Origin: Gammaproteobacteria bacterium
GTDB lineage: Bacteria > Pseudomonadota > Gammaproteobacteria > Ga0077536
Direction of reading: 5' to 3'
Length of the DNA stretch: 64,000 bases
NCBI GenBank assembly: GCA_965223085.1
Contig: OZ244981.1
Span: 577,161 to 641,160, forward strand
A program made the translations under genes and the position numbers. How positions within the stretch are numbered: position 1 is the stretch's first letter; each line of letters opens with the position of its first letter. The notes under the pieces were generated by a model. It saw nothing but the letters and a program-made list of their open reading frames with translations, did not search any database and was not told the DNA's origin. Of this stretch, positions 3,098-56,657 are shown one piece after another.

Positions 3098-3898
3098 CCA
3101 TGACCACACCAAGGACGGTGCTGATCTCGCTCGATGAGACACCCTACTACCACATCGCCTCTCGCGGCGTGCGCCGCGCCTTGTTGTGCGGTAAAGATGC
3201 CTAACCGGGACAGAACTATGAACAGCGACGACAGTGGGTCGTCGACCGCATCAGACTGCTATCTTCGCTCTCGATGTCTGCGCCTATGCCGTGATGAGCA
3301 ATCACTACCACCTGGTGTTGAAAGTCTGCCCAACACAACTCAATGACTTAGCCGACCAGAACATCATCAAACGCTGGTGCGCCCTCTTCAAAGGCCCTGT
3401 GCTCGTGCAGCAATATCGCGCCGGGCATGACTTCTCTGACCCTGAAATGAACAAACACGCACTGCTCGCCTGCATGGCTTATGTCAACCCAATCCCCTGC
3501 GCGCCAATATCGCCCGCACTCTCGAGGATTCCAACTACACCAGTATCCAAGCGCGCATCCAATCAACGTTCAGCCTAGAGAAAACAATGCACAGACAAAT
3601 CCCTCCCGGCGATAGCTTAGCGTACCATCTCCCCCTGAAACCCTTGGCACCTTTCAAAGGGAACATTCAAGGTAAACCACACCACGACATCCCCTGCCCT
3701 TATCGGGATTACCTCGAACTCATTCACTGGACCAGCCGGCTCATCCGGGACATCCACCATCACACTAGCCCCGCAACACCGCCCCGCCTCGAACGCTTCA
3801 ACATCAGCACCCCGCAATGGCGTATCGAAACCACCCAATTCAAGACCCTTCACCGGCAACGATTCAACCGCCACACGCCAACGCCAAATACGGGCTAA
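3098..3898 (+). pseudogene. decayed Y1 (HUH) IS200/REP-associated-type transposase, split over at least three frames
   Basis: Fragments MTTPRTVLISLDETPYYHIASRGVRRA and ..FALDVCAYAVMSNHYHLVLKV.. (the HxH/HUH motif of Y1 transposases), plus a further frame continuing to 3898. No intact ORF remains. Confidence 0.5.
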
Positions 3899-4229: not shown

Positions 4230-5288
4230 ATGCATTACGGATTTGCTTTTCTCTCTGCGATCGACATCGACGGCGACGTCGCCTACGCCGAACAACAGGG
4301 TTTTACGCACGCTTGGTTATACGATTCACCGATGATCTGCGCGGACGTCTATCAGTGCCTCGCGCTCTGCGCCAAGAAAACGAGCACGATCAAGCTCGGT
4401 ACGAACGTCACGAATCCCGCTTCGCGAATTGCCCCGGTCACGGCGAATAATTTTGCCACCCTCAACATGCTGGCCCCGGGCAGAGTGATCATGGGTATCG
4501 GCACCGGCAATACCGCGCGTCGCACGCTTGGCATGCCGGCGGCAAAACTGGCACAGCTGCGTTCACATGTGGAGATCTGCCGCGGTCTGTTGCACGGCGA
4601 AACGGTGGCGTATTCTGAAGGCGCGCGCCACCGCATGATCCGGTTTCTGAACCCGACGGGTGGCTGGATCCATCTCGAGGATGAGATCCCGATCTATATC
4701 GCCGCGAGCGGGCCAAAGGCCCTCGAACTCGCCGGCGAGATCGCCGACGGGGTGATCCTGTTCGGCGCCGTCGGCGACAGCCTACTCGAATACGCCCTAG
4801 ACCGAGTGCGACGCGGGGCAGCGCGTCGCGGACGCCACCTGGACGATCTCTATATCATGCTGTCCACTGCATCACATGTGACGCAAACAGGCGAGAGTCT
4901 CGCATCGAAACAGCAGGCGGTTGGCGCCTACGTCACTTCACAATGCAACATCTTCGCCTTATCGGTGCAGGATTTGACAGATCTGCCCGCCGACATTCGC
5001 GATGACATCATGGCGTTCCGTAACGCTTACCGCACACCCGCCACGCCAATCGAAACGCGTCATCTCGATCTTTACGCAGGATACGTCAACGAATTCAAGG
5101 CGGAACACGCGGACATCGTTACCGAGAAAATGATCCGCGAAACGACACTCACCGGCACGCCCGACGAACTCAGCGCGCGCATCGCTAAGTTGAAGGCAGC
5201 AGGCGTGGACCAGATCGCGATTCACGGCGGGTCGCGCGAACGCACGCGTGAAGTAATCGCAGAATTTGCCGCGCACGTTATCGCTTAG
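4230..5288 (+). CDS. LLM-class (luciferase-like) flavin-dependent oxidoreductase
   Basis: 352 aa with ..GIGTGNTARRTLGMP.., a TIM-barrel bacterial-luciferase-family signature. A good ORF, divergent from the upstream transposase debris. Confidence 0.8.
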   Translation: MHYGFAFLSAIDIDGDVAYAEQQGFTHAWLYDSPMICADVYQCLALCAKKTSTIKLGTNVTNPASRIAPVTANNFATLNMLAPGRVIMGIGTGNTARRTLGMPAAKLAQLRSHVEICRGLLHGETVAYSEGARHRMIRFLNPTGGWIHLEDEIPIYIAASGPKALELAGEIADGVILFGAVGDSLLEYALDRVRRGAARRGRHLDDLYIMLSTASHVTQTGESLASKQQAVGAYVTSQCNIFALSVQDLTDLPADIRDDIMAFRNAYRTPATPIETRHLDLYAGYVNEFKAEHADIVTEKMIRETTLTGTPDELSARIAKLKAAGVDQIAIHGGSRERTREVIAEFAAHVIA

Positions 5289-5452: not shown

Positions 5453-7900
5453 GTGAGCACCTCTCTGCCGAACGAGGCTCAGGTAATTGTCGTCGGCGGC
5501 GGCGTCATCGGGTGTTCGATTGCGTACCACCTCGCGGGACTTGGGATAGAGACCGTATTGCTGGAACGACGGCAACTCACCTGCGGCACAACATGGCACG
5601 CTGCAGGATTGCTCGGGCAACTCAGAGGCTCGCTGAACATGACGCGCCTCGCAAAATATACAGCCGAACTTTACGCGGGTCTGGAAGCGGAGACCGGCCA
5701 GGCGACCGGGTTTCGTGAGACGGGCTCGATTTCAATTGCAACCACCCCGGGCCGACTGGAAGAGTTACGCCGTAACGCATCGATGGCAAAAGCTTTCGGG
5801 CTACGGGCGGACGTGCTCACGACGACCGAAGTCGGCGCGCGGTATCCGCTCATCAAAACGAATGATGTGCTCGGGGGGGTGTTCATTCCGGGCGATGGTC
5901 ATGCCAACGCCGTCGATACCACACGCGCACTCGCGATCGGTGCGCGCCGGCACGGTGCGATGATTTTTGAAGATACCGAGGTGACGACCATCGAGCACGA
6001 CGGCAGTCAGATCACAGGAGTATCGACGACGGCCGGGCGTATCGCGACCCGGCAAGTCGTATTGTGCGCGGGCATGTGGACGCGTAATTTGGCCGCGACG
6101 ATCGGTGTCAATGTACCGTTGTATCCCTGCGAGCACTACTACGTCGTGTTCGAGAACTGTGTCGGGCTCACCCCGGGCATGCCTGTTCTTCGCGATTATG
6201 ACTCGCGTACTTACTACAAGGAAGATGCCGGCAAGCTTCTCTTGGGCGCATTCGAACCCCAGGCACGTCCGTGGACAGTCGACGAAATTCCGCAGGCATT
6301 TTGTTTCGACGAACTCCCGGGTGTGTTTGACCACTTTGAACCAATACTCGCCACAGCTACGGAACGCATGCCGATGTTGGCTGAAGCCGGCATGCAATCT
6401 TTTTTCTGTGGTCCGGAGAGCTTTACTCCAGATGTACGCTACCACATTGGCGCGGCGCCTGAACTCGACGGTTGTTTTGTTGCGGCCGGTTTGAATTCGA
6501 TCGGGCTGCAATCTGCCGGTGGTATCGGCAAAGTGATGGCGGCGTGGATCCGCGACGGGCATCCGCCCATGGATCTGTGGGACGTCGACATTCGCAGGAA
6601 CCAACGGTTTCAAAGTAATCGAACATACTTGCGCGAACGTGTTCGAGAGAGCCTCGGGTTGTTATATGCGCATCACTGGCCGTTCCGACAGTACACGACC
6701 GCGCGCGGACTGCGCCGTTCGCCGCTGCACGACAGGCTTGCGGCCAAGGGTGCGTGTTTCGGCGTCGTGGGTAGCTGGGAGCGTGCGAACTGGTTCGCAC
6801 CGCCCGGTGTGAAAGCGGCGTACGAATACACCTGGGGCAAACAGAACTGGTTCGACTACTCAGCGGCGGAGCACCGCGCCACCCGCGAAGGCGTCACCTT
6901 GTTCGACATGTCTTCGTTCGCGAATTTCCTCGTGCAAGGGCGGGACGCGACCAAAGCTTTAAATCGAATCTGCGCCAACGACATCGATGTTGAGCCCGGG
7001 CGCATCGTGTATACGCAATGGCTCAACGAACGCGGCGGGATAGAAGCAGATCTGACCGTAACGCGGTGGAACGAGAACGAGTATTTCATCGTCTCACCAG
7101 GAGAAACACAGGTGCGGGATTTTGCTTGGTTGCGCAAAAACTTGCACCCGGACGCTGTCGCCGTTGCGACCGATGTCAGCTCCGGGTGGGCGGTGATTCC
7201 GGTCATGGGACCGCGCTCGCGAGAATTATTGCAGTCGCTGACGCGTGCGGATTTATCGAACGACGCGCACCCATTCGGGCGCAGCCGAGAGATCGAGCTT
7301 GGCCCTGCTCTGGTGCGCGCGTCACGTATCTCCTACGTTGGGGAACTCGGCTGGGAGCTGTATATACCGACCGAATTCACGCTTTGTATTTATGAGGCGC
7401 TGGTGGAAGTCGGCGAGAACTTTGGTCTGGTGCATGCCGGATTGCATGCGCTGAATTCGTTACGCATCGAGAAGGCCTTCCGACATTGGGGCCACGACAT
7501 CACTGATGAAGACACGCCACTAGAGGCCGGCTTGATGTTCGCCGTCGCGTGCGACAAACCGGGTGGCTTCAGCGGTCGGGACGCCGTGCTTCGTCAGCTC
7601 GAATCGGGGACCGACAAACGCCTACTGCAATTGAAACTAGATGCGGGCGCGCCGCTGGTCTACCACAATGAACCCATCGTACGCGAGGGTGAGATCGTGG
7701 GCCTCGTCCGCTCTGGCATGTACGGTCACACGTTGAACGGTCCTGTAGCACTCGGCTATGCCGAATTCCCCGGCGCTCGTGACGACGAAACAGTTCTCGC
7801 TGGCGATTATCAAATCGAGATCGCGGGCGAGCGTCACCGCGCACAAGTATCGCTGGAACCAATGTATGACCCGCAGAGTTGCCGATCGCGGGACGTTTAG
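5453..7900 (+). CDS. dimethylglycine/sarcosine dehydrogenase-family enzyme (FAD oxidoreductase fused to a GcvT-like aminomethyltransferase domain)
   Basis: 815 aa. The N-terminus VIVVGGGVIGCSIAYHLA is a DAO-type FAD-binding fold; the C-terminal half (..FDMSSFANFLVQGRDA.., ..VSPGETQVRDF..) resembles the GcvT/T-protein. Size and architecture match DMGDH/SardH. Confidence 0.85.
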   Translation: MSTSLPNEAQVIVVGGGVIGCSIAYHLAGLGIETVLLERRQLTCGTTWHAAGLLGQLRGSLNMTRLAKYTAELYAGLEAETGQATGFRETGSISIATTPGRLEELRRNASMAKAFGLRADVLTTTEVGARYPLIKTNDVLGGVFIPGDGHANAVDTTRALAIGARRHGAMIFEDTEVTTIEHDGSQITGVSTTAGRIATRQVVLCAGMWTRNLAATIGVNVPLYPCEHYYVVFENCVGLTPGMPVLRDYDSRTYYKEDAGKLLLGAFEPQARPWTVDEIPQAFCFDELPGVFDHFEPILATATERMPMLAEAGMQSFFCGPESFTPDVRYHIGAAPELDGCFVAAGLNSIGLQSAGGIGKVMAAWIRDGHPPMDLWDVDIRRNQRFQSNRTYLRERVRESLGLLYAHHWPFRQYTTARGLRRSPLHDRLAAKGACFGVVGSWERANWFAPPGVKAAYEYTWGKQNWFDYSAAEHRATREGVTLFDMSSFANFLVQGRDATKALNRICANDIDVEPGRIVYTQWLNERGGIEADLTVTRWNENEYFIVSPGETQVRDFAWLRKNLHPDAVAVATDVSSGWAVIPVMGPRSRELLQSLTRADLSNDAHPFGRSREIELGPALVRASRISYVGELGWELYIPTEFTLCIYEALVEVGENFGLVHAGLHALNSLRIEKAFRHWGHDITDEDTPLEAGLMFAVACDKPGGFSGRDAVLRQLESGTDKRLLQLKLDAGAPLVYHNEPIVREGEIVGLVRSGMYGHTLNGPVALGYAEFPGARDDETVLAGDYQIEIAGERHRAQVSLEPMYDPQSCRSRDV

Positions 7901-7917
7901 AACGGCAGTAACAGGAG

Positions 7918-8319
7918 ACACCGTTACGGACGTATTAGTATTGGCAGAACGTTTTCTTCGTGCTCTCGAAAGTATGGATGAAGCAGGGCTACGTAGTTGC
8001 TATGGACCGCATAGCTTCGATTTGGCACGACTTTGATCAAGTAACACAAAGCGTTGATGAAAATATCGCGATGCTCGCGAGCTTGCACGAGCTCGTCGGC
8101 AGCATCAAGTTTCAAGGCCGCCGGCGGGAGGCGATTAAGGGGGGCTTCCTTGAAGTTTATACTCTACGGGGCAGCGTTGCGGGAAGCGACTTTGCTATAC
8201 CGGCATGTTTTCTTGCCGATGTCGAGAATAATCGCATCGTGAAAATTGAAGAATACGTCAATCCCCAAGCATTACCGGATAAACTGAGTCCGGAACAACA
8301 AGCCGCGTTTGTCGCTTAA
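7918..8319 (+). pseudogene. SnoaL/NTF2-like small protein, apparently frameshifted near 8016-8020
   Basis: Frame A reads ..TDVLVLAERFLRALESMDEAGLRSCYGPHSFD and then hits a stop. Frame B continues ..WHDFDQV..GRREAIKGGF..FLADVENNRIVKIEEYVNP, the C-terminal half of a SnoaL-like fold. A one-base indel in GATTTGG would join the two. Confidence 0.4.
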
Positions 8320-8642
8320 CCGGCTATTGCACGAGGACCGCAGTAGCAAGCAAGTGAGCGCTCCCACACTATCTGGCTTAGAGGTATCCGCCGTGCGTGC
8401 CTAAGCGGCAGCCGGTAAGCACCTCGCGCAAGTTCGATCACACCGGCAGACACTGCATAGGTTTTGCGTTGTTCATCGAAGTGCAACATACCTTCGGCAA
8501 CCAAGGTTTTTAGCAATTTAAAGCAACTGTTTACGTTGAGTTCGAGTTCAGCTGCGATGCCGCTCACACCCATCGGCTCACAGCTACTTAAATGGCGAAT
8601 AATACACAACGCGTTGCTTACCGAACGAATACTATTGGCCAT
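8316..8642 (-). pseudogene. IclR-family regulator, HTH domain only (truncated)
   Basis: MANSIRSVSNALCIIRHLSS..MGVSGIAAELELNVNSCFKLLKTLVAEGMLHFDEQRKTYAVSAGVIELARGA is an IclR N-terminal HTH. About 33 aa of non-IclR sequence follow and then a stop. No effector domain is present, and the position is occupied by a convergent gene. Confidence 0.5.
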
Positions 8643-8779
8643 CTTAGAAACGTCGTCAGTGCTTGTTCCGAATCTGGTTCTGTCATCATTCCAATAATGA
8701 AATGACTTTATCAATTTTTTGCTACGATGTAGCTTACGGTCGAGCAGCAGCTTCGACAGATAAAAATAGGAGGGCGAGT

Positions 8780-10027
8780 ATGTTTACGGCAACTGACGGA
8801 ATATTGATCCCAACGACTGTGACGGGATCTTGGCCACGACCCGCGTGGTTTACGCGCAGTCTTCAAGGGCGACGCTTATCCGACGTGATGACCGACATCG
8901 AGTACCGCGAGCAGTTTTTGGACGCCGTGGCGACCGTTATCAGCGATCAGGAGCAGGCTGGCCTAGACATTGTCTGCAACGGTGACTACCACCTCGATCC
9001 TAATCTCGGCGGCCTATCCTGGATCCTGTGGCCGATTGAACGCATGGCGGGCGTTGACGCGCAGGATACCTATCCGGCGGCGGAAGAATGGTCGTATCCA
9101 CCCGGCTCGGTGCTCAACGAGGTCATGGGGGGGTGGCGCTATCCGGCAGCAGTGGACAAAGTGCGCCGAGAAAGATCGTGGGAATTCGCCAAGCTGTGGC
9201 GAACGGCGCAAGCAAAAACAATGAAACCATTGAAATTCGGTACCGTGTCCGGGCAAATGACGGGGTCTTTTGTCGAGTTGCGCACGACTAAATATCCGCA
9301 GGACAAACGTGAGCTCATGTGGGATATGTGCGTCGCGATCAACGAGGAGTTGTGTGAACTCGCCACCGCGGGCTGCAAAGTGATTCAACTCGAAGACCCA
9401 CTCATACATCTCGTCAGTCCGACCAAACCCGACAAGGAGTACGTCGATTTCCTGATCGATTGTTTTAATCGTGAAGTAGAGGGCCTAGATGATGTTGAAA
9501 TCTGGATCCATACTTGCTGGGGCAATCCAAACATGCAAAGGGTGTTGGAAGACACATCGTATGCCCCGTCGTTCGAAGACTATATGGAACGCGTGAACGG
9601 GGATGTATGGACGGTCGAAATGAAGGAGCGCAACTGGGCGGATATCGAGTTATTTAAGGCGTATAAAGGCAAAAAATGGCCGAAGAAGATCGCCGTCGGC
9701 GTTATTAGTCACCGTTACCTGCAAGTTGAAACGCCGCAAGAAGTCGCTGCCGATATTCGTAACGCGCTGAAATACATTGATCCTGAGCAGTTGGTCCTTT
9801 CAACCGATTGTGGCTTCGGACGTCAAGGGTGTAATCGCATGATTGCTTTCCACAAATCGGTGTCCATGGTACAGGGTGCAAACATTGTTCGACAGGAACT
9901 CGGCGGCGAAGCAAGCATGGTCAGGGCCGCTGATCCGAACTTGCAAGTCGATAATATTTATCGCGAAACCCGTGATCGCGTGCTGATTACTGACGCCGGA
10001 GTCGGTGCTAGCCGTGGCGACGGATGA
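8780..10027 (+). CDS. MetE-like Zn-dependent methyltransferase (cobalamin-independent methionine synthase family, stand-alone catalytic barrel), paralog 1
   Basis: MFTATDGILIPTTVTGSWPRPAWF.., IQLEDPLI (Glu ligand), WIHTCWGN (His-x-Cys) and STDCGFGRQG (Cys) are the MetE C-terminal-domain Zn-site signatures. An AGGAGG RBS lies upstream. It is about 45% identical to the paralogs at 22507 and 48017. Confidence 0.8.
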   Translation: MFTATDGILIPTTVTGSWPRPAWFTRSLQGRRLSDVMTDIEYREQFLDAVATVISDQEQAGLDIVCNGDYHLDPNLGGLSWILWPIERMAGVDAQDTYPAAEEWSYPPGSVLNEVMGGWRYPAAVDKVRRERSWEFAKLWRTAQAKTMKPLKFGTVSGQMTGSFVELRTTKYPQDKRELMWDMCVAINEELCELATAGCKVIQLEDPLIHLVSPTKPDKEYVDFLIDCFNREVEGLDDVEIWIHTCWGNPNMQRVLEDTSYAPSFEDYMERVNGDVWTVEMKERNWADIELFKAYKGKKWPKKIAVGVISHRYLQVETPQEVAADIRNALKYIDPEQLVLSTDCGFGRQGCNRMIAFHKSVSMVQGANIVRQELGGEASMVRAADPNLQVDNIYRETRDRVLITDAGVGASRGDG

Positions 10028-10180
10028 CGGTTAACGGAAAGCCGTGCACTAATGTAATCACCTATCTCGAGCACGTGAATAAGGAGCCAGCAGTCTGTCG
10101 GTGATGTAAGCGCCGCAATAGAGCAGACGACTAACCGCAAGACGCGTTGGCCAAGCGAGCGCTATAGGGAGGAGGAATCG

Positions 10181-11395
10181 ATGCCAAACGCAAGCTCTGA
10201 TAGCGCCGTCTACATAGTCGGCACCGCTGATACGAAGCGTGCCGAGCTAGAATTTCTGCGCGAGCGTATCGCGGCTAGCGGCGTGACAACCCGGATCGTC
10301 GATGTTGGCATTCTTAGCGACGGACGCGACGTCGATTTTGGGCCGACCGCGGTTGCCGCTCACCATGCTCGAGGCGCTGCGATCCTAGATACCGATGATC
10401 GCGGTGGAGCGATTGCGGCCATGGGCGAAGCGCTCATCGGGTTTCTCACTTCGAGGCCTGATCTCGCAGGTGTGATCGGGATCGGCGGCTCGGGCGGTAC
10501 GGCAGCTATTACACCCGCGATGCAGGCACTCCCCATCGGCACACCGAAAGTCATGGTTTCTACCGTGGCGTCGGGTGATGTCACCGCATACGTTGGCCCT
10601 ACCGACATTTGCATGATCTACTCGATTACAGATCTCGCCGGACTGAACCGAATTTCCACGACAGTGCTCAACAACGCGGCGGCCGCGATCTCAGGCATGG
10701 TCCGTGCGCCGCGTGCTGCCATGGTGTCGCTGCCGCCGGCGGTAGGACTTTCGATGTTCGGCGTTACCACACCGCTTGTCATGACCCTCACAGAGCGATT
10801 AAAACCCGCGTTTGAACCTTTGGTATTTCACGCTACCGGTATCGGCGGTAGGTCGATGGAACGTTTGGCGTTAGAACGCGAAGTGATCGCCCTACTCGAT
10901 ATGACGACCACGGAAATCGCAGATTATTTAGTCGGCGGTGTAATGAGCGCGGGTCCGAGTCGCCTCGATGCCGTAATCGAGACCAAGCTACCCTACATCG
11001 GGTCGTGCGGCGCCTTAGACATGGTTAATTTTGGGGCCCGAGAAACGGTGCCGGAAAAATTCAACGATCGTCAATTCTACATTCACAATCCCTTCGTGAC
11101 CTTAATGCGTACGACGCGCGACGAAAACCGGCAAATCGGGGAATGGATCGGCAACAAGCTCAATTGTTGCGAGGGTCCGGTGCGTTTTTTAATCCCGAGC
11201 AAGGGCGTATCTGCGATCGACATCGAAGATGGACCCTTTCGTGATCCCCAAGCGGATGCAGCCCTGTTCGAGGCGTTGCAATCAACCATCACCGAAACTG
11301 CGAAACGCCAACTCGTGTCTATCGACGCTCATATCAACGATACCGTGTTTGCTGACGCGGTTGAGTCTTTGTTTAAGGAAGTGGTTGCCGTCTAG
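10181..11395 (+). CDS. UPF0261 / Tm-1-like ATP-binding domain protein (COG5441)
   Basis: 404 aa, [22 protein letters not shown]...[16 protein letters not shown]... The size and motifs are typical of the Tm-1-like N-terminal family, which is normally found next to a PEP-hydrolase-like partner, as here. Confidence 0.75.
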
Positions 11396-11406
11396 GAGAA
11401 CGCCAC

Positions 11407-12231
11407 ATGATTTCTCGTCAACAAGTCCTCAGCAAATTTAACACCATGATCGAACAAGGTATACCCATCATAGGTGGCGGTGCCGGCACAGGTTTATCGG
11501 CAAAATGCGAAGAAGCAGGGGGCATCGATCTGATTGTGATCTATAACTCCGGCCGCTATCGAATGGCTGGGCGCGGTTCACTCGCCGGTTTGCTGGCCTA
11601 CGGCAATGCGAACGAGATCGTCGTGGAGATGGCGCAGGAAGTCGTGCCCGTAGTCAAACACACTCCTGTGCTTGCCGGTGTTAACGGCACCGATCCGTTC
11701 ATTGATCACACGCGCTTCCTACAAAAGCTGCAAACTTTGGGTTTTGCGGGCGTGCAGAATTTTCCCACGGTCGGTTTAATCGACGGACAGTTTCGCCAAA
11801 ATCTGGAAGAGACAGGCATGGGGTATGCGCTCGAAGTTGACATGATCGGCGCGGCACACCGCCTCGATCTACTAACAACACCTTATGTCTTTGACGTCGA
11901 CGATGCCCGCGCTATGACGGCTGCCGGTGCAGATATCTTAGTCGCGCATATGGGTCTAACGACCGGCGGCGCGATCGGGGCTGATACGGCGCGTAGCTTG
12001 GATGATTGCGTTGGCAAAATCGACGCCATCGCGCAAGCGGCGAGAGCGGTACGCCCTGAGGTGATCATGCTGTGTCACGGCGGCCCTATTTCATCGCCCG
12101 AAGATGCGAAATTCATACTCCAGCACTGCCGCGAAATTAATGGCTTTTATGGTGCGAGCAGCATGGAACGTCTACCAACTGAAACAGCGATCACCGGGGT
12201 CACGCAAGCATTCAAAAACATTACCGTCTAG
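11407..12231 (+). CDS. phosphoenolpyruvate-hydrolase-like 'TIM-barrel signal transduction' protein (COG5564), partner of UPF0261
   Basis: 274 aa, ..[43 protein letters not shown].. Start is 12 nt after the Tm-1-like stop. The last 57 nt of the gene lie inside direct repeat 1. Confidence 0.75.
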
Positions 12232-12255
12232 GTCGGAGGTTCGTTCTAACCGAAC
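12175..12255. repeat. direct repeat 1 (about 81 bp), covering the 3' end plus 24 nt downstream of the PEP-hydrolase-like gene; left boundary of the island
   Basis: ccaactgaaacagCgatcaccggggtcAcgcaagcAttcaaaaacattaccgtctaggtcGgaggttcgttctaaccgaac matches 24786..24866 with 4 mismatches. It contains the stop codon and a small hairpin (gttcg-ttctaac-cgaac). Confidence 0.85.
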
Positions 12256-12416
12256 TAACCGTGGAATTCGTCGAATTTAATATACGAACAATCTTTTTAG
12301 GGGGTAACCCACTCGACTCCAACGATAGAGGTGGCCCCGGAAAATCGGACAGCGGTATAAGTGGAATCTGGGCCTGATATGAGCCATGTTATTGGCCTCC
12401 CTATCAGGAGGCAATC

Positions 12417-24447: not shown

Positions 24448-24785
24448 TTCGTGTTTCCTCTTTGTCCGCAATTCGCCAATCGCTTTCAAAAGGATAACCG
24501 GATGGCTCGGCGCTTCCGAACCGACAACAATTTACAGAAGAAACGTTACACCACCCAAAATCAAAAGGCATGAGAGATACAGAATTATCCACTCTTCTTG
24601 GGGAGGCATACTTCCATGAGGGAAAATACCAAAACGCTATTGCAGCTCTCACAGCCGGTATCAATCTCTTTGTCGAAGATTCGCGATTTAATATGTCGGG
24701 CGAAAGTTTTGGACCTCCGCGAGCTCCGGCCATTTACCACGGCGTTAGATTGCATATCCGATTTGGGTGGCTGACCGGGAGTCAG

Positions 24786-24866
24786 CCAACTGAAACAGTG
24801 ATCACCGGGGTCGCGCAAGCGTTCAAAAACATTACCGTCTAGGTCAGAGGTTCGTTCTAACCGAAC
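24786..24866. repeat. direct repeat 2 (partial copy of the PEP-hydrolase-like gene 3' end); right boundary of the island
   Basis: 77/81 identical to 12175..12255. Only the last 16 codons upstream ([17 protein letters not shown]) resemble the gene, so this is the partial duplicate. Confidence 0.85.
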
Positions 24867-48016: not shown

Positions 48017-49189
48017 TTGATTTTTGTGTTCAAAGCGACCGACGGTCGACCCTTAGCGACCACACTGACAGGATCTCTCCCACGACCCAGCTGGTTTATC
48101 GAGAATCTACGCGGCCGCCCATTCTCTCTGGCCATGGCTGATCTCCATTTTCGTGAACAGTACTGCGACACGCTGGCGACACACTTCTGTGACCAGTCGA
48201 TGGCAGGGCTTGAGATCCTCGTCGATGGCGACTCGCGTTTCGACGCCGATGTAGGTGGCCGCGCTTGGTTCGCTTACATGTTTGAACGCATGGGTGGCTT
48301 GGAAAAGCCGGCCTTGCAAGTGCCAGGATGGTCGTCTCCTCGCGAACAACAGCGCGGCGATATTTTGCAGCGCGTCGGAGAATGTCGAGTGCCAGCTTCC
48401 GTGACCGGTGAGATCACGCCCGGCGATCTCGAATACACCGAGCTGTGGAAGACTGCTCAGAGTATGACTTCAAAACCAGTAAAACTGGGTAGCTGCTGCG
48501 CGCAACTGCTAGACACAGTTGTCGTAAATCAATATTACAAACAGCAACAGGAAGTCACAAATGCCATAGCGGATTCTATGAACTCCGAATACCACCGACT
48601 TGCCGATGCCGGCGCACCAGTGATTCAACTAGAAGAGCCACTGATACAATATGTCGCGCCGCTGGATGGTGGTAAGAAACAAGCAGAGAAATACGTAGAG
48701 GTTTTTAATCGTGAAGTCGATGGCTTGCGGGACAAAACCGAGGTTTGGGCACATACATGTTGGGGCAACCCACTGGCCCAGCGCGTTGAAGTCGTACCGG
48801 ACTACAACCCGGGTTTAGCGTATTTAAATGCCCTGGATGTTGACGTCATTACATTCGAGACGGCTAGCGACGGGGGAGAAAACCTGGAGGCGATTGCCGA
48901 CGCGATTAGTAAAGATAAAAAGATCGCAATCGGCGCGATCCATCATCGGAGCCTCGAGATCGAACGACCCGATCAAGTCGCCGAAATCGTCCGTCGCGCG
49001 GCGAAACTGATTGGGCCTGAGCGGTTGATCATAAGCTCTGACTGCGGATTCGGTCGTCAAGGCATGAGTCGCATGCACGCGTTTTTCAAAATGGTGTCGC
49101 TGCGATTGGGAGTCAATATTGTTCGCAAAGAATTCGGATTGGACGAAATACCCAGCCTCGCGGCCGATCCCAGATACGCCTTAATTTAG
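48017..49189 (+). CDS. MetE-like Zn-dependent methyltransferase, paralog 3 (about 90% identical to paralog 2)
   Basis: MIFVFKATDGRPLATTLTGSLPRPSWF..IQLEEPLIQ..WAHTCWGNP..SSDCGFGRQG. Lies immediately upstream of the Mo-hydroxylase cluster. Confidence 0.8.
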   Translation: MIFVFKATDGRPLATTLTGSLPRPSWFIENLRGRPFSLAMADLHFREQYCDTLATHFCDQSMAGLEILVDGDSRFDADVGGRAWFAYMFERMGGLEKPALQVPGWSSPREQQRGDILQRVGECRVPASVTGEITPGDLEYTELWKTAQSMTSKPVKLGSCCAQLLDTVVVNQYYKQQQEVTNAIADSMNSEYHRLADAGAPVIQLEEPLIQYVAPLDGGKKQAEKYVEVFNREVDGLRDKTEVWAHTCWGNPLAQRVEVVPDYNPGLAYLNALDVDVITFETASDGGENLEAIADAISKDKKIAIGAIHHRSLEIERPDQVAEIVRRAAKLIGPERLIISSDCGFGRQGMSRMHAFFKMVSLRLGVNIVRKEFGLDEIPSLAADPRYALI

Positions 49190-49319
49190 GGTCCCACGGT
49201 TGTGAACTTTATAACGGACGCAAGGAATCCACTTTGTAGAAATGACGCCGTCAGCAGCAGATTAAGCCTTGCCCTCGGTTTTTAGATTTACCACAGCACA
49301 ACGACACCGAACGTTACCG

Positions 49320-50117
49320 ATGAGTATCAGCTACCATTTTCCCACCGATAGTGCTGCCGCCTGGGCATTGATCAGCGACCCCAAAGCGAAGGTTATCGTG
49401 ATTGGCGGCGGCACTGTGACAACCCCAACGCTCTTCCAAGGTGCGTCGACACACACCGATATTGCCGATTTATCGCGCGCCGGATTGCATACCGCTAGCG
49501 ACGATGACGGCCGTATTCGGGTTGGGGCGATGATCCGAATAGTCGACTTCGAACGGATCACAGCGCTGCGCGCATTGCGCACAGCGGCCCGATCTGTGGG
49601 ATCGCCGGCCTTGCGCAACCTCGCCACTATCGGCGGTAATGTCGCCTATCGCGGTGATCTGGCCGTCGCCATGCTGGCACTGAAAAGCGATGTCGACATT
49701 CGCGATCGATCGGGACAGCGTACCGTGTCGTTGGAAGACTTCTATCGCGGTGATGTCAGTGTTCCGTACCTCATCACTGGGCTCACCATCCCTAAGCCGT
49801 TACCGTTGCGGCTTGGTTATTACAAATTCGCTCGACGTGCCCACAACACATCTGCGATCGTCACAGCAACAGTTGTGTGGCGTGATGATGCCGTCCGCAT
49901 CGCGATCGGCGGTGCGACCCCTAGCCCGTTCCTGGTTGAGTTAGACGCTACCGAAGTGGGCCAGGATCCCACACCCGAGACTTGTCGTGACATACTCGAA
50001 CGCAGTGGTACACCGATCGAACCGATCACCGACGCACAGGCGTCAGCGTGGTATCGCGCGCGGGTTATTCCGATCGCGCTAGCACGAGCTATTGGCGCCG
50101 CGCAGGCGCCACGATAA
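49320..50117 (+). CDS. xanthine-dehydrogenase/CO-dehydrogenase-family FAD-binding medium subunit (CoxM-like)
   Basis: MSISYHFPTDSAAAWALISDPKAKVIVIGGGTVTTPTLF..ATIGGNVAYRGDL.. FAD_binding_5-type motifs. An upstream alternative start at 49269 is possible. Confidence 0.8.
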   Translation: MSISYHFPTDSAAAWALISDPKAKVIVIGGGTVTTPTLFQGASTHTDIADLSRAGLHTASDDDGRIRVGAMIRIVDFERITALRALRTAARSVGSPALRNLATIGGNVAYRGDLAVAMLALKSDVDIRDRSGQRTVSLEDFYRGDVSVPYLITGLTIPKPLPLRLGYYKFARRAHNTSAIVTATVVWRDDAVRIAIGGATPSPFLVELDATEVGQDPTPETCRDILERSGTPIEPITDAQASAWYRARVIPIALARAIGAAQAPR

Positions 50118-50232
50118 CACGCAAATCTTTGTTGCGAGACGCTGGCAACGTAATAGCCCTAGGAGAAATCGTTAGTGACGTACAGTCGGAAAGGGTTCAA
50201 CAGCAGTTCATACTGCACCCGGGGACGATAAG

Positions 50233-50715
50233 GTGGTGGATACTGCAATCTCGATCGAGATAAATGGCCGCGATGAAACCGTCTTGGTAAATGCCACGAC
50301 ATCATTACACGCACTATTGCACGAGCGCCTCGATTTGCACAGCGTCCGATCGGGTTGTAGCGTGGGCACTTGCGGAAGTTGTGCAGTGTTACTCGACGGC
50401 GAACTCGTATTGTCCTGTCTCGTACCGGCGCTACGCGTCGAGGGCCACCGCATCGAAACGCTCGAAGGACTTTCACACGCAAACGAAATAGAGTCGATAC
50501 AAGCAGCCTTCATCGAATGCGGAGCAACACAATGTGGGTATTGCACGGCGGGAATGATTATCGCCGCGAAACAACTACTCGACGACAATCCCGCGCCGAC
50601 GCGTGAGGCGATTCTCGAAGCGATATCCGGTAACGTCTGCCGCTGCACTGGTTACGAACCCATTGTTGCGGCGATCGCGCTAGCCGCACATGGTCAAACC
50701 GATCTGGAGAAGTAA
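50233..50715 (+). CDS. (2Fe-2S)-binding small subunit (CoxS-like) of the molybdenum hydroxylase
   Basis: ..RSGCSVGTCGSCAVLLDG.. (plant-type 2Fe-2S Cys4) and ..CGATQCGYCTAGMI..CRCTGYEPI.. (second cluster). Confidence 0.85.
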   Translation: MVDTAISIEINGRDETVLVNATTSLHALLHERLDLHSVRSGCSVGTCGSCAVLLDGELVLSCLVPALRVEGHRIETLEGLSHANEIESIQAAFIECGATQCGYCTAGMIIAAKQLLDDNPAPTREAILEAISGNVCRCTGYEPIVAAIALAAHGQTDLEK

Positions 50716-50717
50716 GC

Positions 50718-52073
50718 ATGTACGACTTGAAAACAGTGACTTTTCCGGAGCAACACGATGACTCCTTAAGCGTCGTCGGGAAATCAATACCAAGACGCGG
50801 CGCGCCCGCTAACGTTCGGGGTGAGGTTAAATTCGTGGATGATGTCGCCTATCGCGGCATGCTACATCTAAAAATGGTGAGAAGCCCAATTCATCATGGA
50901 CTCATTAAATCCATCGATGATTCTGCGGCGGCTGAGGTCGACGGTTTTATCCGTACCCTGACTCATCATGATGTACCTAATAATTATTTTACGCCATTGC
51001 AGATCATCGGTGTCAGCCCCAATGACGAACCGGTATTAGCCACCGATAAGGTACGGCATCGAGGCCAATCCGTCATCGCCGTACTCGGTGAAACGCCGCA
51101 GGCAGCAGCGGCGGCGGCAGCTCGCGTAAGGGTCGAGTACGAGGAATTGCCGGCCGTGTTCGATGTCGAGCAAGCACTCGAACCAACGGCGCCCATCGTC
51201 GCCACGCACGGGAAGAATTATTGGGAGTACGAAGGTCACCCTTGTCGCCGTGTCCGTTTCGGCGATGTTGCGGCCGGTTTCGAACAGGCCGATGTGATCG
51301 TCGAGGATCGCTACGATACCTCACCTATCGAGCAAGCGCCGCTGGAAACAACCGCTTGCGTTGCCGTGCCCGGATCGGACGGCCGCGTTACGGTTCATAC
51401 CAACACACAAGCACTGTTTTTTACCCTAGCGAATACGTCCATCATCAGCGATATTGCGCCACATCGCCTGCGATTCCTCGGCGGTGTGGTCGGTGGTGGA
51501 TTTGGTGGCAAGTCTGATGCGATAACGGAGCCGCTCGCGGTTGTCGCCGCAAACCTCACCGGCCGTCCGGTGAAATTCAAGTATTCGCGCGAAGAAGAAA
51601 TGCAAGTGTCGTCTACCCGAGCCGCTTGGCGTTTCTATATCCGTGACGGGGTCAAACGTGATGGCCGAATCGTTGCGCGCGAGATCACCGCTTACGCAAA
51701 CTGTGGCGCATATACCCGCCTAGTGAACTACGGCGTCACGAAATGTGCAGCCCACCTGCCAGGACCCTATACCATCCCCAACGTATCGATCGATGCTTAT
51801 TGCGTCTATACGAATCGCCAACCCGGTAGTGCCATGCGCGGATTCGGTTGCACAATGGGTGACTTCGCGATCGAAATGCAAATGGACAAGATCGCCACGG
51901 AGTTAAATTTGGATCCATGGCGTGTTCGCATGGTCAACGCGTACCGCGACGGAGATATGAAGGCCCACCGCAAGGAGGTAGAAGGCGCTGCCCTAATTGA
52001 AGTTTTGCAGCAAGCAGCGCAGCAGGTCGGTCACGAACTTAGCGCTGACCTGGCAAGCATGCGCTCGTTCTAA
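50718..52073 (+). CDS. molybdopterin-binding large subunit (CoxL-like), N-terminal part (split gene)
   Basis: a/b-hammerhead (..GKSIPRRGAPANVRGEVKFVDDVAYRGMLHLKMVRSPIHHGLIKSID..) and the first Mo-binding domain (..GGGFGGKSD.., ..GCGAYT..). Ends at a TAA 16 nt before the next ORF. Confidence 0.75.
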   Translation: MYDLKTVTFPEQHDDSLSVVGKSIPRRGAPANVRGEVKFVDDVAYRGMLHLKMVRSPIHHGLIKSIDDSAAAEVDGFIRTLTHHDVPNNYFTPLQIIGVSPNDEPVLATDKVRHRGQSVIAVLGETPQAAAAAAARVRVEYEELPAVFDVEQALEPTAPIVATHGKNYWEYEGHPCRRVRFGDVAAGFEQADVIVEDRYDTSPIEQAPLETTACVAVPGSDGRVTVHTNTQALFFTLANTSIISDIAPHRLRFLGGVVGGGFGGKSDAITEPLAVVAANLTGRPVKFKYSREEEMQVSSTRAAWRFYIRDGVKRDGRIVAREITAYANCGAYTRLVNYGVTKCAAHLPGPYTIPNVSIDAYCVYTNRQPGSAMRGFGCTMGDFAIEMQMDKIATELNLDPWRVRMVNAYRDGDMKAHRKEVEGAALIEVLQQAAQQVGHELSADLASMRSF

Positions 52074-52088
52074 ATCGGAGAGATCCAC

Positions 52089-53093
52089 ATGGCGATTCGT
52101 GAAGGGCGGGGCATCGCCGCCGTCAATTATCCAACCGGGATGAATCTCGGCGGGGATCCATCGCAGGCGCTGATCCATGCTACGCCGACCGGCGAATTCC
52201 ACGTCGTCTTGGCATCGGTCGACCTAGGACAAGGCCTGCGCACCGTGATCGCGCAGATTGCCGCCGAAGCGCTCGGGGTTCCCATCGACGTCATCAACGT
52301 CCAAACCGGCGATACAGACACGGGGCCGCACTGCACGGGAACATTCGCGAGTCGTGGTACGCATCGTATCGGCAACGCAGTTGCGGCCGCGGCGGCAGAA
52401 GCCAGAAACGTTATGCTCGAGGTTGCCGCGAACGAACTTGAAGTCGATCCGGGCGATCTCGAAACGGACGGCGACGGCAATATTCATATCAAGGGTCACC
52501 CGGAACGCTCGATATCCGTTTGTGACACGGCCTTGGCCGCACATTTCGCAGTCGGTCGAACGATATCCGGTCGCGGCATCTACCTCAAGGAACCGAGTAC
52601 GCCAGATCCTGAGACAGGCGCGATGGACCCAGACTCGGGACACGCCCACGCGTGTGTTGTCGCCGACGTGCAAGTTGACACTGATACCGGTGAGGTGCGG
52701 GTCGTCGCGGTCCACAATGCTTTCGAGGTTGGCCGAGCCGTTAATCCGACCTTGGTGGAGCAACAGATCTTTGGCGGCGCGTGGATGGGAATGAGTCACG
52801 CGTTGTACGAAACAACGGCACCGTATTACCCTGAGCCTGATCACGCACCGGTCGATTTCGGCGACTACCTCATGCCGCATGGCGCAGAATTGCCGGAGGT
52901 CAGCAGCGTTGTCATCGAACGACCGAACGCTAGCGGGCCCTACGGCGTTAAAGGCGTCGGAGAGATGACCGCAAATCCGATTATTCCAGCCATCGCCAAC
53001 GCCGTGGCGGATGCGGTTGGTGTGCGTATAACGAGCCTTCCAATTACGCCCGAGAAGGTGCTACGGGCATTGGACGGCCTTAAGCGCACGTAA
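52089..53093 (+). CDS. molybdopterin-binding large subunit, C-terminal part (split gene)
   Basis: ..AHACVVADVQVDTDTGEVRVVAVHNAFEVGRAVNPTLVEQQIFGGAWMGMSHALYE..GPYGVKGVGEMTANPIIPAIANAV is the C-terminal domain of XDH-family large subunits. Own ATG with a GGAGAG RBS. 451+334 aa sums to a normal CoxL length. Confidence 0.75.
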   Translation: MAIREGRGIAAVNYPTGMNLGGDPSQALIHATPTGEFHVVLASVDLGQGLRTVIAQIAAEALGVPIDVINVQTGDTDTGPHCTGTFASRGTHRIGNAVAAAAAEARNVMLEVAANELEVDPGDLETDGDGNIHIKGHPERSISVCDTALAAHFAVGRTISGRGIYLKEPSTPDPETGAMDPDSGHAHACVVADVQVDTDTGEVRVVAVHNAFEVGRAVNPTLVEQQIFGGAWMGMSHALYETTAPYYPEPDHAPVDFGDYLMPHGAELPEVSSVVIERPNASGPYGVKGVGEMTANPIIPAIANAVADAVGVRITSLPITPEKVLRALDGLKRT

Positions 53094-53980
53094 TGGATAC
53101 CGTGTCCCAATCGATTCCGCAAACTGTATCGGATGTGGACGACAGCTTGCGTGCGACGGGGTATATCAGCGACGAGGGAATCGCGGCTGCCGTGTTTTTG
53201 GCGCTTCGTCTACAACGCCCGCTTCTACTCGAGGGATTTCCAGGTTGTGGCAAGACCGATTGTGCGAAGGCGCTGGGCGAAGTCCTCAAAACTGAGCTCA
53301 TCCGGCTGCAATGCTACGACGGATTAGGCGCTAAAGAGGCACTATACGATTGGGATTATTCGCGGCAGTTGCTTCATCTACGCGCAGTGCAGAACGAAGA
53401 GCAATCGCGTGGATTGGATCAAGAACTGTACAGTGAGCGATTTTTGCTAGCCCGTCCGTTGCTGCGCGCACTACAGGAGGCGCGCGCCCCGGTCGTCCTC
53501 ATCGACGAAATCGATCGCGCGGATGCAGATTTCGAGGCCTTTCTACTCGAGTTTCTCGATGAGTTCCAGGTAACGATTCCTGAAATCGGCAGTGTGACAG
53601 CGAGTGCCCGACCCCACGTTGTGTTGACGTCCAATCGTACTCGCGAATTGCACGACGCACTCAAGCGTCGTTGTATTTATCATTGGATCGACTTACCAAC
53701 ACCCGAGCGCGAGTTGGAGATCATCCGCTCACGTTGCCCAGATATATCGAAGCAACTAGCACACCGCATCAGTATCGCATTGCAACGTATTCGCGCGCTC
53801 GATTTAGCCAAAAAACCAGGGGTCGCCGAGGCCATCGACTGGGCGCGGGCTTTAATGCAATGGCAAGCTGCACAATCGCAAGGTGAGGACTGGGCACCAA
53901 CTCTTGGCGCATTGCTCAAGAACCGGCGCGATCTCGAGATCGCCCGCGAACAAAACGAGGAGATTTTCGCAGAAAATTGA
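53093..53980 (+). CDS. MoxR-type AAA+ ATPase (CoxD-like Mo-enzyme maturation factor)
   Basis: ..LLLEGFPGCGKTDCAKAL.. (Walker A), ..VVLIDEIDRA.. (Walker B). The start overlaps the coxL-C stop (TAATG). Confidence 0.8.
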   Translation: MDTVSQSIPQTVSDVDDSLRATGYISDEGIAAAVFLALRLQRPLLLEGFPGCGKTDCAKALGEVLKTELIRLQCYDGLGAKEALYDWDYSRQLLHLRAVQNEEQSRGLDQELYSERFLLARPLLRALQEARAPVVLIDEIDRADADFEAFLLEFLDEFQVTIPEIGSVTASARPHVVLTSNRTRELHDALKRRCIYHWIDLPTPERELEIIRSRCPDISKQLAHRISIALQRIRALDLAKKPGVAEAIDWARALMQWQAAQSQGEDWAPTLGALLKNRRDLEIAREQNEEIFAEN

Positions 53981-55140
53981 TCTCAGCTGCGGCGACTGTT
54001 CCTATTGTTCCGTCTTTGGTGGGATTCGCCTGTGCCTTGAGAGACGCGGGATTCATGATATCCCCAGAACAAACTAGGCGTTTCCTCCAAGCGGTGACCG
54101 AAATCCGCCTCGAACGCAAGGCGGAATTGTACTGGGCAGCGCGTGTGTGTTTGTTAAGCGACGCTACTCGTATCGCGACTTTTGACGCGGCGTTCCATGA
54201 TTATTTCAACACTACGCCGGGCGCCTTGCTTGGCGCTGAAATCGCGGATTCTGTCGCGACCAACGATCAATTAGGGCGACAGCTCGTGCACACCGGAATA
54301 GGTGATAACTCGTGTGATGTCGAGGGCGAAACTCGGGGCGGCGAAAACATGGGACGCGGCGCGTCCGGCGTCGAAAGACTTAGGACGCGTTACCTCGAGC
54401 CACCTAGCGCGGCAGAACGTGCGGTGCTAGACGAATTGGAACGCCGGCTGCATCACACAATATCACCCCGTGCCAGTCGTCGTTTCATGCGCGGCGACAG
54501 CGGCGACGAACTGGATTGGCACGCGACTATCGGTCGCATGCCGCGTACCTATGGTGAAATCAGTCGCCTCGAATGGAAGCAACGCCGAAAACAATACGCC
54601 ATACCGATCGTACTCATTGATATATCGGGCTCGATGTCCGCGCAGATCCGCCCGGCCATGATGCTCGCCTACGCCTTGACGCAGGCCTTTAAACGAACGC
54701 GCTGCTTTACCTTGGGCACCCGTTTGACCGATCTCGGCGATGCCCTGCATTCGCGTGACGCGGCGCAGTCATTCTGTCAGCTTAGCGAACGGGTCGACGA
54801 TTGGCAGGGTGGTACCCGCCTAGGCCCGACACTGCTGGAATTTGTGCAGGACTTCGAACGCGAGGCCCTGGTACGGGGCGCTCGAGTGCTGATAATTTCC
54901 GATGGATTGGAACGTGGCGATCCGAGTGCGCTTTATCTTGCGGTTCATCGGATCAAACTGTTGGCGTCACAGCTCACTTGGTGTTCGCCGCTGGCGCGCC
55001 GGTCCAACTACGAACCACGCACGCGAGCTATGCGGGAATTACGCCCAACACTCGGGCAGATCTTCCCCGGTTCTCAGCTATGGGAGTTAGGTGATTCTGT
55101 GCTTCGGGCTTGGTGTCGACCGGGTAGTGTAGTGAGGTAG
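53977..55140 (+). CDS. VWA-domain protein (CoxE-like)
   Basis: ..PIVLIDISGSMS.. (MIDAS DxSxS) in a roughly 387-aa protein after a MoxR ATPase. Putative TTG start overlapping the coxD stop; a downstream ATG at roughly 54053 is an alternative. Confidence 0.7.
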   Translation: MISAAATVPIVPSLVGFACALRDAGFMISPEQTRRFLQAVTEIRLERKAELYWAARVCLLSDATRIATFDAAFHDYFNTTPGALLGAEIADSVATNDQLGRQLVHTGIGDNSCDVEGETRGGENMGRGASGVERLRTRYLEPPSAAERAVLDELERRLHHTISPRASRRFMRGDSGDELDWHATIGRMPRTYGEISRLEWKQRRKQYAIPIVLIDISGSMSAQIRPAMMLAYALTQAFKRTRCFTLGTRLTDLGDALHSRDAAQSFCQLSERVDDWQGGTRLGPTLLEFVQDFEREALVRGARVLIISDGLERGDPSALYLAVHRIKLLASQLTWCSPLARRSNYEPRTRAMRELRPTLGQIFPGSQLWELGDSVLRAWCRPGSVVR

Positions 55141-55260
55141 GCTAGGGATTGTTAGACTGTCGGATAAGTCAGTAGAGCACGTAACATTTTCACCGCAGTT
55201 TAATTCGCACACTGTACGGTGAGGGAAAGTTCTCGCTCAACACCAGCGCCGGAAACCCGC

Positions 55261-56586: not shown

Positions 56587-56657
56587 TGCTCGACTCACAC
56601 CCCACGCGCCTAAACCCAACAGGCTGCTAATAGTCGCCTTCCTTACACGCTGTCCGC

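Follow-up and report, generated by a model that had tools for sequence, protein, structure and literature searches.

A MetE-like methyltransferase gene beside a Tm-1-type UPF0261/PF09370 pair in a gammaproteobacterial genome: probably two juxtaposed units rather than a general three-gene system

Introduction

The 64,000-nucleotide (nt) stretch analysed here (the window; contig OZ244981.1 of assembly GCA_965223085.1, positions 577,161 to 641,160) comes from a gammaproteobacterium of the Ga0077536 lineage and carries, one after another on a single strand, the genes for a MetE-like methyltransferase, a UPF0261 (Tm-1-like, ATP-binding) protein and a PF09370 TIM barrel of the 'PEP-hydrolase-like' (phosphoenolpyruvate hydrolase-like) kind. 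Do these three genes form one system, or are they separately conserved genes that have come to lie side by side? The UPF0261/PF09370 module, which bacteria, archaea and fungi share and which plants have in fused form as Tm-1, ranks with the more widespread of the enzyme-like modules for which no substrate is known, and a genuinely linked neighbour of the pair would be a useful lead. An earlier reading made from the sequence alone (the sequence-only reading) had treated the three genes as one operon acting on a methylated small molecule. Our comparison leads us to regard the locus as probably two independently conserved units juxtaposed on one strand, possibly co-transcribed in this lineage, and not as a general three-gene system.

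The three genes and their layout

All four ORFs (open reading frames) that the sequence-only reading had placed at this locus are present in the ORF list of the window, and its domain assignments hold against both Pfam and NCBIfam (Table 1). Shine-Dalgarno sequences, each rated good, precede all three enzyme genes, and GGGAGGAGGAATCG stands just 5' of the UPF0261 start codon. The close coupling described earlier for the last two genes stands, the gap between them being 11 nt (11396-11406) rather than the 12 nt first given. In the spacer between the MetE-like and UPF0261 genes, scans returned no terminator-like or promoter-like site beyond what shuffled sequence would yield, and its RNA fold shows no stable structure (z-score +1.36). 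Because no terminator separates the two units, they may be read from a single promoter. The G+C content at third codon positions (GC3) of the MetE-like, UPF0261 and barrel genes is 0.61, 0.61 and 0.58, respectively. A megablast search of positions 7900-12300 against plasmids returned zero matches.

Table 1. Features of the window and of compared loci. Positions are those of the window unless a locus is named; kb, kilobases; aa, amino acids.
Feature	Position	Strand	Length	Domains and remarks
Putative split REP-associated (IS200-like) tyrosine transposase	3234-3898			Two adjoining ORFs; motif YHLVLK
Mer-like LLM oxidoreductase (Bac_luciferase)	4230-5288			Best NCBIfam TIGR03842, F420-type, below cutoff
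FAD + GcvT dimethylglycine-dehydrogenase-like enzyme	5453-7900		815 aa	DAO+FAO_M+GCV_T+GCV_T_C
SnoaL-like gene, apparently frameshifted	7866-8319 (start approximate)	+		N-terminal part and 7960-8319 in different frames
IclR-family remnant	8316-8714	-	132 aa	HTH_IclR only
MetE-like gene	8780-10027	+	415 aa	PF01717 Meth_synt_2, E 9e-26; ATG chosen to fit homologue N-termini
Spacer, MetE-like/UPF0261	10028-10180	+	153 nt	
UPF0261 / Tm-1-like ATP-binding protein, putative small-molecule kinase	10181-11395	+	404 aa	PF06792, E 5.7e-58; PF23189, E 1.8e-87
PF09370 'PEP-hydrolase-like' TIM barrel, UPF0261 partner	11407-12231	+	274 aa	PF09370, E 1.4e-131
Direct repeat, left copy	12170-12255	+	86 nt	Last 19 codons of the TIM-barrel gene + 24 nt
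Inserted segment	12256-24780		12.6 kb	
TonB-dependent receptor, in the inserted segment	20214-22463			
MetE-like paralogue, in the inserted segment	22513-23670	-		
Direct repeat, right copy	24781-24866	+		93% identical to the left copy; orphan TIM-barrel 3' end, closes the 12.6-kb segment
Cox-type cluster	48017-58426			Headed by the next paralogue
MetE-like paralogue, in the Cox-type cluster	48026-49186	+		
Biotin carboxylase, biotinyl and carboxyltransferase domain fusion	60629-63916		1095 aa	
Rhizobial pair locus, Rhizobium johnstonii 3841 pRL12	L175, 7992-11704			
Rhizobial pair locus, S. meliloti pSymA	L176			
Methyl-cycle-cluster MetE-like homologues	L002-L004, 10001-11203 / 7873-9075; L173, 5001-6191			59-60% identity

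Conservation and neighbours of the UPF0261/PF09370 pair

Searching species-representative genomes with an alignment of 25 UPF0261 homologues gave a set of the best 80 loci, at 48-59% identity, which spans Alpha-, Beta-, Gamma- and Deltaproteobacteria, Actinomycetota, spirochaetes, Synergistales and Bacteroidota. PF09370 follows UPF0261 on the same strand, at most 600 nt downstream, in 76 of these 80 genomes (median gap about 40 nt), and the window protein likewise has the adjoining PF09370 partner that, adjoining or fused, characterises its family. Earlier work had reported that UPF0261 and PF09370 co-evolve (PMC5028733), and phylogenetic profiling gives the corresponding COG5441-COG5564 association a STRING score of 0.988 (PMC8963296). 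These reports agree with our count, and together they bear out the wide conservation and tight coupling that the sequence-only reading had ascribed to the pair.

The pair keeps recurrent company of its own, although the counts of neighbour families are approximate, as they depend on our own ORF calling and clustering and the ORFs are over-extended in high-GC loci. Among the 80 loci, Liv-type ABC (ATP-binding cassette) transporters are represented by Peripla_BP_6 proteins (27), ATPases (40) and permeases (18), and flotillin/SPFH genes occur in 25. SRPBCC (Polyketide_cyc2) domains stand free in 20 and are fused to a quinone-oxidoreductase-like domain in 16, and amidohydrolase (13 of 80), TetR and SDR genes are found as well. 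The rhizobial loci have the order TetR <-> UPF0261 - barrel - cupin - Xaa-Pro-peptidase-family gene, next to a sugar-type ABC transporter. R. johnstonii and S. meliloti are well studied, and an inducer for their pair might already be on record.

The MetE-like gene as a neighbour of the pair

The MetE-like protein was run by tblastn against the same 80 pair loci with an E threshold of 1e-5, which would also catch paralogues at 41% identity. No homologue of the MetE-like family was found within 10 kb of the pair in any of them; the lone MetE-family match nearby, in Orbus sasakiae, has 24% identity and lies 4 kb away. From the other side, neither UPF0261 nor PF09370 was detected within 6 kb of the MetE-like homologues in 80 metagenome loci (53-71% identity), and the pair is likewise missing from all six MetE-like loci of the closest clade (70-75% identity). 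One locus (L005) excepted, the trio thus stands together in none of the 166 other neighbourhoods (80 + 80 + 6). Nor did the top 120 homologues of each protein include any fusion of the MetE-like domain with UPF0261 or PF09370. The absence of the MetE-like gene from 80 of 80 pair neighbourhoods leaves a general three-gene system without support. The sequence-only reading had cast the MetE-like gene as a partner of the pair and had proposed just such a neighbourhood survey, in which absence elsewhere was to count against it; absence is what the survey returned, at both kinds of locus and with a single exception.

That exception, on contig JAJFJR010000174.1 of assembly GCA_021773855.1, repeats the trio in the order MetE-like - 39 nt - UPF0261 - 13 nt - barrel, on a contig that starts 24 nt upstream of its MetE-like gene. 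Its proteins are 85% (MetE-like), 70% (UPF0261) and 73% (barrel) identical to those of the window, with DNA identities of 74% and 67%. For each of the three genes L005 is the nearest relative that was found, and the shared order may therefore simply be inherited.

The UPF0261 protein compared with MarK and Tm-1

Both domains expected of a UPF0261 protein are present in the window protein, which covers positions 2-173 of 176 in PF06792 and 2-217 of 218 in PF23189, and the equivalog NF002673 ('hypothetical protein') is matched at 575.8 bits against a cutoff of 520. Among structures, Tm-1 (3WRY; E 2e-93) is a stronger match than MarK (9MPY; E 2e-54). MarK (Saro_1862 of Novosphingobium aromaticivorans) is the only characterised member of the UPF0261 family. 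It is a stand-alone homodimeric kinase that converts ATP to ADP, and was shown in 2025 to phosphorylate the phenolic hydroxyl of acetovanillone and of related ketones and aldehydes (PMC12624787). The earlier statement that these families have no assigned bacterial function is overtaken to that extent, and still describes the paired form, which has no known substrate.

The two-domain fold, the D-T-K ATP site and the Gly/His/His acceptor site of MarK are all kept in the window protein. Its GTA-D17-T18-K19 aligns with GTADTK of Tm-1 and with D14-T15-K16 of MarK, the lysine that contacts the nucleotide being K20 in Tm-1 and K16 in MarK. In a HMMER alignment to 9MPY, window residues G194, H217 and H302 correspond to MarK G195, H219 and H304, which hydrogen-bond to or stack on the acceptor (PMC12624787). 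Across the 25 aligned UPF0261 homologues, D17, T18, K19, G194, H217 and H302 are invariant or nearly so. The residues that give MarK its specificity, in contrast, are not shared: T196, F283, I285 and H348, which shape a hydrophobic pocket and bind the ketone (PMC12624787), are V195, M281, N283 and I346 in the window protein, and of these M281, N283 and I346 vary little or not at all in the alignment and occur in Tm-1 too. The two proteins also differ in their surroundings, as the MarK homodimer is active without a TIM-barrel partner and its gene lies with acvCDEF/hpeCBAD carboxylase and phosphatase genes, whereas no such set adjoins the window gene, the sole biotin carboxylase within the window being 48 kb away. 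With specificity residues and gene context both departing from MarK, the window UPF0261 protein is not a MarK orthologue. By analogy with MarK, it would keep the phosphotransfer chemistry and act on a different substrate, and the residue comparison suggests that paired UPF0261 enzymes have an acceptor pocket that is different from, and more polar than, that of MarK.

Tomato Tm-1 is known for binding tobamovirus replication proteins, and we know of no catalytic activity or native substrate for it. Both of its halves have homologues in the window, with residues 6-428 of Tm-1 matched by UPF0261; in Tm-1 and the plant Tm-1-like proteins (3WRV-3WRY) the halves are fused (PMC5028733), whereas in the window they are two adjoining genes. 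An anti-phage reading, suggested by the likeness to Tm-1, was dropped, as none of the PADLOC defence models matches the three enzymes.

The PF09370 barrel

The barrel protein matches the complete PF09370 profile, with the full-length fold, and resembles generic phosphate-binding barrels. Among the closest known systems is Mll9387 of Mesorhizobium loti (PDB 2P10), which was deposited as a 'putative phosphonopyruvate hydrolase'; the family name would imply a specific kinship with PEP mutase, isocitrate lyase and phosphonopyruvate hydrolase enzymes. The barrel is much better conserved than its partner: across Alpha- and Gammaproteobacteria its identity is about 75%, as with the proteins of Mesorhizobium, Morganella, Brenneria and Inquilinus, and its mean column identity is 83%, against 55-60% identity between UPF0261 and its homologues. 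Conservation peaks at residues 49-60, 185-191 and 250-257, which fall in low-confidence loops of the structural model, and the stretches HGGPI and GASSMER, which follow strands 7 and 8 respectively, are invariant. We take the loops after these two strands to be the classical phosphate-binding place of such TIM barrels.

The MetE-like protein

None of the NCBIfam methionine-synthase equivalogs accepts the MetE-like protein, all scores falling far under the cutoffs (TIGR01371, 69 bits against 930; NF003556, 75 bits against 541), and the N-terminal folate-binding barrel PF08267 is not matched. An AlphaFold2 model (pLDDT 80) is nearest to MesD (3RPD; Foldseek E 1.6e-22, 25% identity), followed by the C-terminal barrels of MetE and then by uroporphyrinogen decarboxylases and MtaA-type methyltransferases. 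A His-Cys-Glu-Cys zinc site is present, as H244, C246, E280 and C344 align with the zinc ligands of both Thermotoga maritima MetE and MesD; these four residues and S17 are invariant across the MetE-like family and in all three paralogues of the window. In the Escherichia coli enzyme, homocysteine is held by the side chains of S433 (carboxylate) and of E484 and D599 (amino group) (PMC7857596). Window residue S17 is the counterpart of the carboxylate-binding serine, whereas D69 aligns with E484 and E205 with D599, such that Glu and Asp are swapped, a swap that is itself invariant in the MetE-like family and may preserve homocysteine binding.

The resemblance to MesD and the other core methionine synthases (3RPD; Price et al. 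2021, PMC7857596) extends to the single MetE-type barrel without a folate-binding N-terminal barrel, to identical zinc ligands and to the serine that binds the homocysteine carboxylate. Against this, the window protein has only 24-25% identity to MesD, about 55 more residues in region 70-125, where 3RPD has about 30, and the two acidic amino-group residues exchanged in length (D69, E205). Its gene is flanked by the IclR remnant and UPF0261, with no adjoining MesX (DUF1852). Members of the MesD/MesX type have at least about 72% identity to MesD of the ACIAD3523 type and an adjoining DUF1852 gene (PMC7857596), and the MetE-like protein, on both counts, is not one of them. Neither is it a full-length MetE: the catalytic barrel is homologous (E 3e-18 to T. 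maritima MetE) with an identical zinc pattern, but the whole N-terminal barrel is absent and the protein has 415 residues instead of about 750. The family of roughly 400-residue single-barrel proteins to which it belongs lies outside the four 'core' families of Price et al. (PMC7857596), and could represent a kind of methionine synthase not recognised so far.

Genomic context points the same way for part of this family. Two homologues of about 59-60% identity (P0053 and P0097) are encoded inside methyl-cycle clusters on contigs of metagenome-assembled genomes, one ordered GntR - X - metK - PfkB - ahcY and the other GntR - X - metK - PfkB - (S-methyl_trans/methyltransferase fusion) - MTHFR. A third homologue is located among housekeeping genes, and at most of the 80 metagenome loci no neighbour is conserved. 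Because the zinc ligands are kept and the 59% homologues sit in metK/ahcY/MTHFR clusters, the protein is, as far as sequence and context indicate, most likely a zinc-dependent homocysteine methyltransferase; the MTHFR neighbour hints at 5-methyltetrahydrofolate as its methyl donor.

The window encodes two further members, the paralogue in the inserted segment and that in the Cox-type cluster, which are 88% identical to each other and 41-42% identical to the MetE-like protein considered here. The sequence-only reading had called the present copy the more divergent one. The relation is the reverse, as it is nearest to the widespread family (59-85% identity) and the other two are outliers that share only 39-44% identity with the rest of the family.

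Some further observations concern relatives and neighbours of this gene. On plasmids, tblastn with the MetE-like protein found only matches of at most 33% identity, annotated as methionine synthases. The best of them (L172, 6001-7067; 32% identity), on pNOCA01 of Nocardioides sp. JS614, lies in a region partly annotated 'hypothetical protein' and surrounded by coenzyme A (CoA)-transferase, SDR and CoA-ligase genes, and is possibly a decayed gene for a zinc-dependent thiol alkyltransferase. This plasmid carries an epoxyalkane:coenzyme M transferase of the same superfamily, with which the matched gene might be identical; no argument here draws on it. In three closest-clade loci an Amidohydro_1 gene lies upstream of the MetE-like gene (L168, 303-1589; L169, 1806-3092; L170, 343-1740), on the same strand and directly upstream in L168 and L169, with an unannotated opposite-strand gene intervening in L170. 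Amidohydrolases recur in these loci, at the pair loci and in the cluster of the third paralogue.

Two units or one pathway

In the reading that we favour, with two juxtaposed units, the MetE-like protein (unit A) would activate homocysteine on zinc and methylate it to methionine. The adjoining genes (unit B, 10181-12231) would be the two-gene form of Tm-1, in which UPF0261, on the MarK analogy, would use ATP to phosphorylate the hydroxyl of a small molecule, and the barrel would then bind the phosphorylated product and convert it by an isomerase, aldolase or lyase type step. A single promoter may serve both units in this lineage.

Several points weigh against this reading. The surveys sampled the 80 loci with the highest scores in each scan. 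The trio recurs in L005 with tight spacing despite a DNA identity of only 67-74%. About 10 substitutions in UPF0261 are common to the window and L005 at columns that are at least 90% conserved elsewhere, among them T191S and T221I near the predicted acceptor site, and such changes could mark an altered substrate tied to the new neighbour. The swapped amino-group ligands of the MetE-like protein leave room for a thiol other than homocysteine, and the role of the barrel is one that we infer, MarK operating without any barrel.

A rival reading is a lineage-specific operon in which the MetE-like protein, UPF0261 and the barrel act in turn on one methylated or thiol small molecule, as the sequence-only reading had proposed. 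Its case is made by the shared strand without an intervening terminator, the order kept in L005, the near-equal GC3 of the three genes and the clade-specific changes in UPF0261. We nevertheless regard it as unlikely, given that the MetE-like gene is absent at 80 of 80 pair loci and the pair at 86 of 86 MetE-like loci, that fusions are lacking, and that inheritance may account for the order in L005, the closest relative throughout. The barrel, moreover, has a single change specific to the window and L005, such that its chemistry looks the same as in lineages without a MetE-like neighbour.

One-carbon genes upstream

A different grouping would join the MetE-like gene to the genes upstream and leave the Tm-1-type pair as an unrelated neighbour. 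Along this route the FAD/GcvT enzyme would strip an N-methyl group to yield methylene-folate, the LLM oxidoreductase would reduce it, and the MetE-like protein would methylate homocysteine. This is chemically coherent, and it fits the domain string of the FAD/GcvT enzyme, the placement of the Bac_luciferase protein nearest to F420/methylene-tetrahydromethanopterin reductase families, and the 59% homologue clustered with MTHFR and metK. Yet the frameshifted SnoaL-like gene and, on the opposite strand, the regulator remnant lie between the two groups, GC3 is 0.66-0.70 upstream against 0.61 in the MetE-like gene, homologues of the LLM oxidoreductase and of the dimethylglycine-dehydrogenase-like enzyme occur in 0 of 80 MetE-like loci, and the LLM protein scores under every NCBIfam cutoff. 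We therefore hold this grouping to be highly improbable.

The LLM oxidoreductase gene stands directly upstream of that for the FAD/GcvT enzyme, and the two may make up a one-carbon unit next to the cluster on its upstream side. On plasmids, tblastn with the LLM protein gave only uninformative matches of about 33%, from Rhodococcus.

The regulator remnant, the SnoaL-like gene and the insertion

Divergent from the MetE-like gene lies a short IclR-family ORF, with a likely ATG at 8642 that would give 108 residues, in which the helix-turn-helix (HTH) domain HTH_IclR is the only one found (E 7.7e-7 / 4.6e-7). A full IclR regulator combines this domain with the effector domain PF01614 over about 250 residues. 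Here the reading frame ends at 108-132 residues, the full-length NCBIfam IclR models, about 260 positions long, align with it only over their first 85 or so, and PF01614 is found neither in the ORF nor in the minus-strand ORFs downstream. The truncation that the sequence-only reading had described is thereby confirmed, and the remnant probably no longer provides ligand-controlled regulation. A search for operator-like palindromes between 8600 and 8800, in the divergent promoter region, returned none. The PADLOC model Csa3 gives a marginal match to the remnant (E 0.0084).

The space in which the effector domain would lie is filled by a convergent reading frame of the SnoaL-like type. Convergence with a frameshifted SnoaL-like gene had also been noted earlier, and the orientation stands; the family match is weak. 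The conceptually repaired protein covers SnoaL_2 positions 1-101 of 102 at E 1.2e-3 and 19.9 bits, below the gathering cutoff of 27, and the 119-residue ORF alone has no Pfam match. Reading through the whole gene requires repair of the frameshift, and a frameshift is plausible.

At the other end of the locus, an island abuts the last gene as the sequence-only reading had stated, bounded by 86-nt direct repeats of which the left copy is the end of the barrel gene, and the barrel ORF has stayed intact. The inserted segment holds IS3 (split ORFs), IS21 (IstA and truncated IstB), IS630-type DDE_3 and Mutator-family fragments, a TraC fragment, a GT4 glycosyltransferase and a TonB-dependent receptor that adjoins the MetE-like paralogue; no integrase gene was seen in it. 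Its insertion sequence (IS) elements have only distant matches, of about 74% identity, in Burkholderiales and Acidithiobacillus. The segment may have arrived either by site-specific integration with a replacement 3' end or by homologous recombination between the gene end and a foreign copy of it.

That the whole locus is a decaying, IS-ridden accessory region with broken regulation and no current coordinated role, as the HTH-only regulator, the frameshifted SnoaL-like gene, the insertion directly at the 3' end and fragments upstream resembling REP-associated tyrosine transposases might suggest, seems very doubtful to us, for the three enzyme ORFs are full length, their family-invariant residues are all intact and each gene has a good Shine-Dalgarno sequence.

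Other features of the window

The hairpin GGCTGAC-CGGGA-GTCAGCC lies immediately 5' of the right repeat copy. Near the left edge of the window, the two ORFs listed in Table 1 as a putative transposase were recognised by eye, and the first of them has no Pfam match. The third MetE-like paralogue heads a CoxM/CoxS/split CoxL/CoxD/CoxE cluster, which is followed by two amidohydrolases and an AraC regulator.

Implications

The pair in the window is a typical two-gene member of the UPF0261/PF09370 module, and the MetE-like protein is a member of PF01717; their arrangement is unusual and narrowly distributed. As only one small clade has the MetE-like neighbour, the locus offers a weak lead to the substrate of the pair. 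In this lineage the pair might have taken on a role in the metabolism of sulfur or methyl groups and share a pathway with an enzyme that methylates homocysteine; it might, for instance, phosphorylate and then convert a small hydroxylated by-product or precursor of the methionine/S-adenosylmethionine cycle. We consider this improbable. If true, a pair that is conserved in bacteria, archaea, fungi and plants would gain its first class of physiological substrate.

Apart from that prospect, the analysis has three useful outcomes. The neighbourhood survey mostly refutes a general three-gene system, and the comparison with MarK suggests that kinase chemistry is kept in the paired UPF0261 enzymes with a different pocket. 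The MetE-like protein, finally, belongs to a large single-barrel family with members in metK/ahcY/MTHFR clusters.

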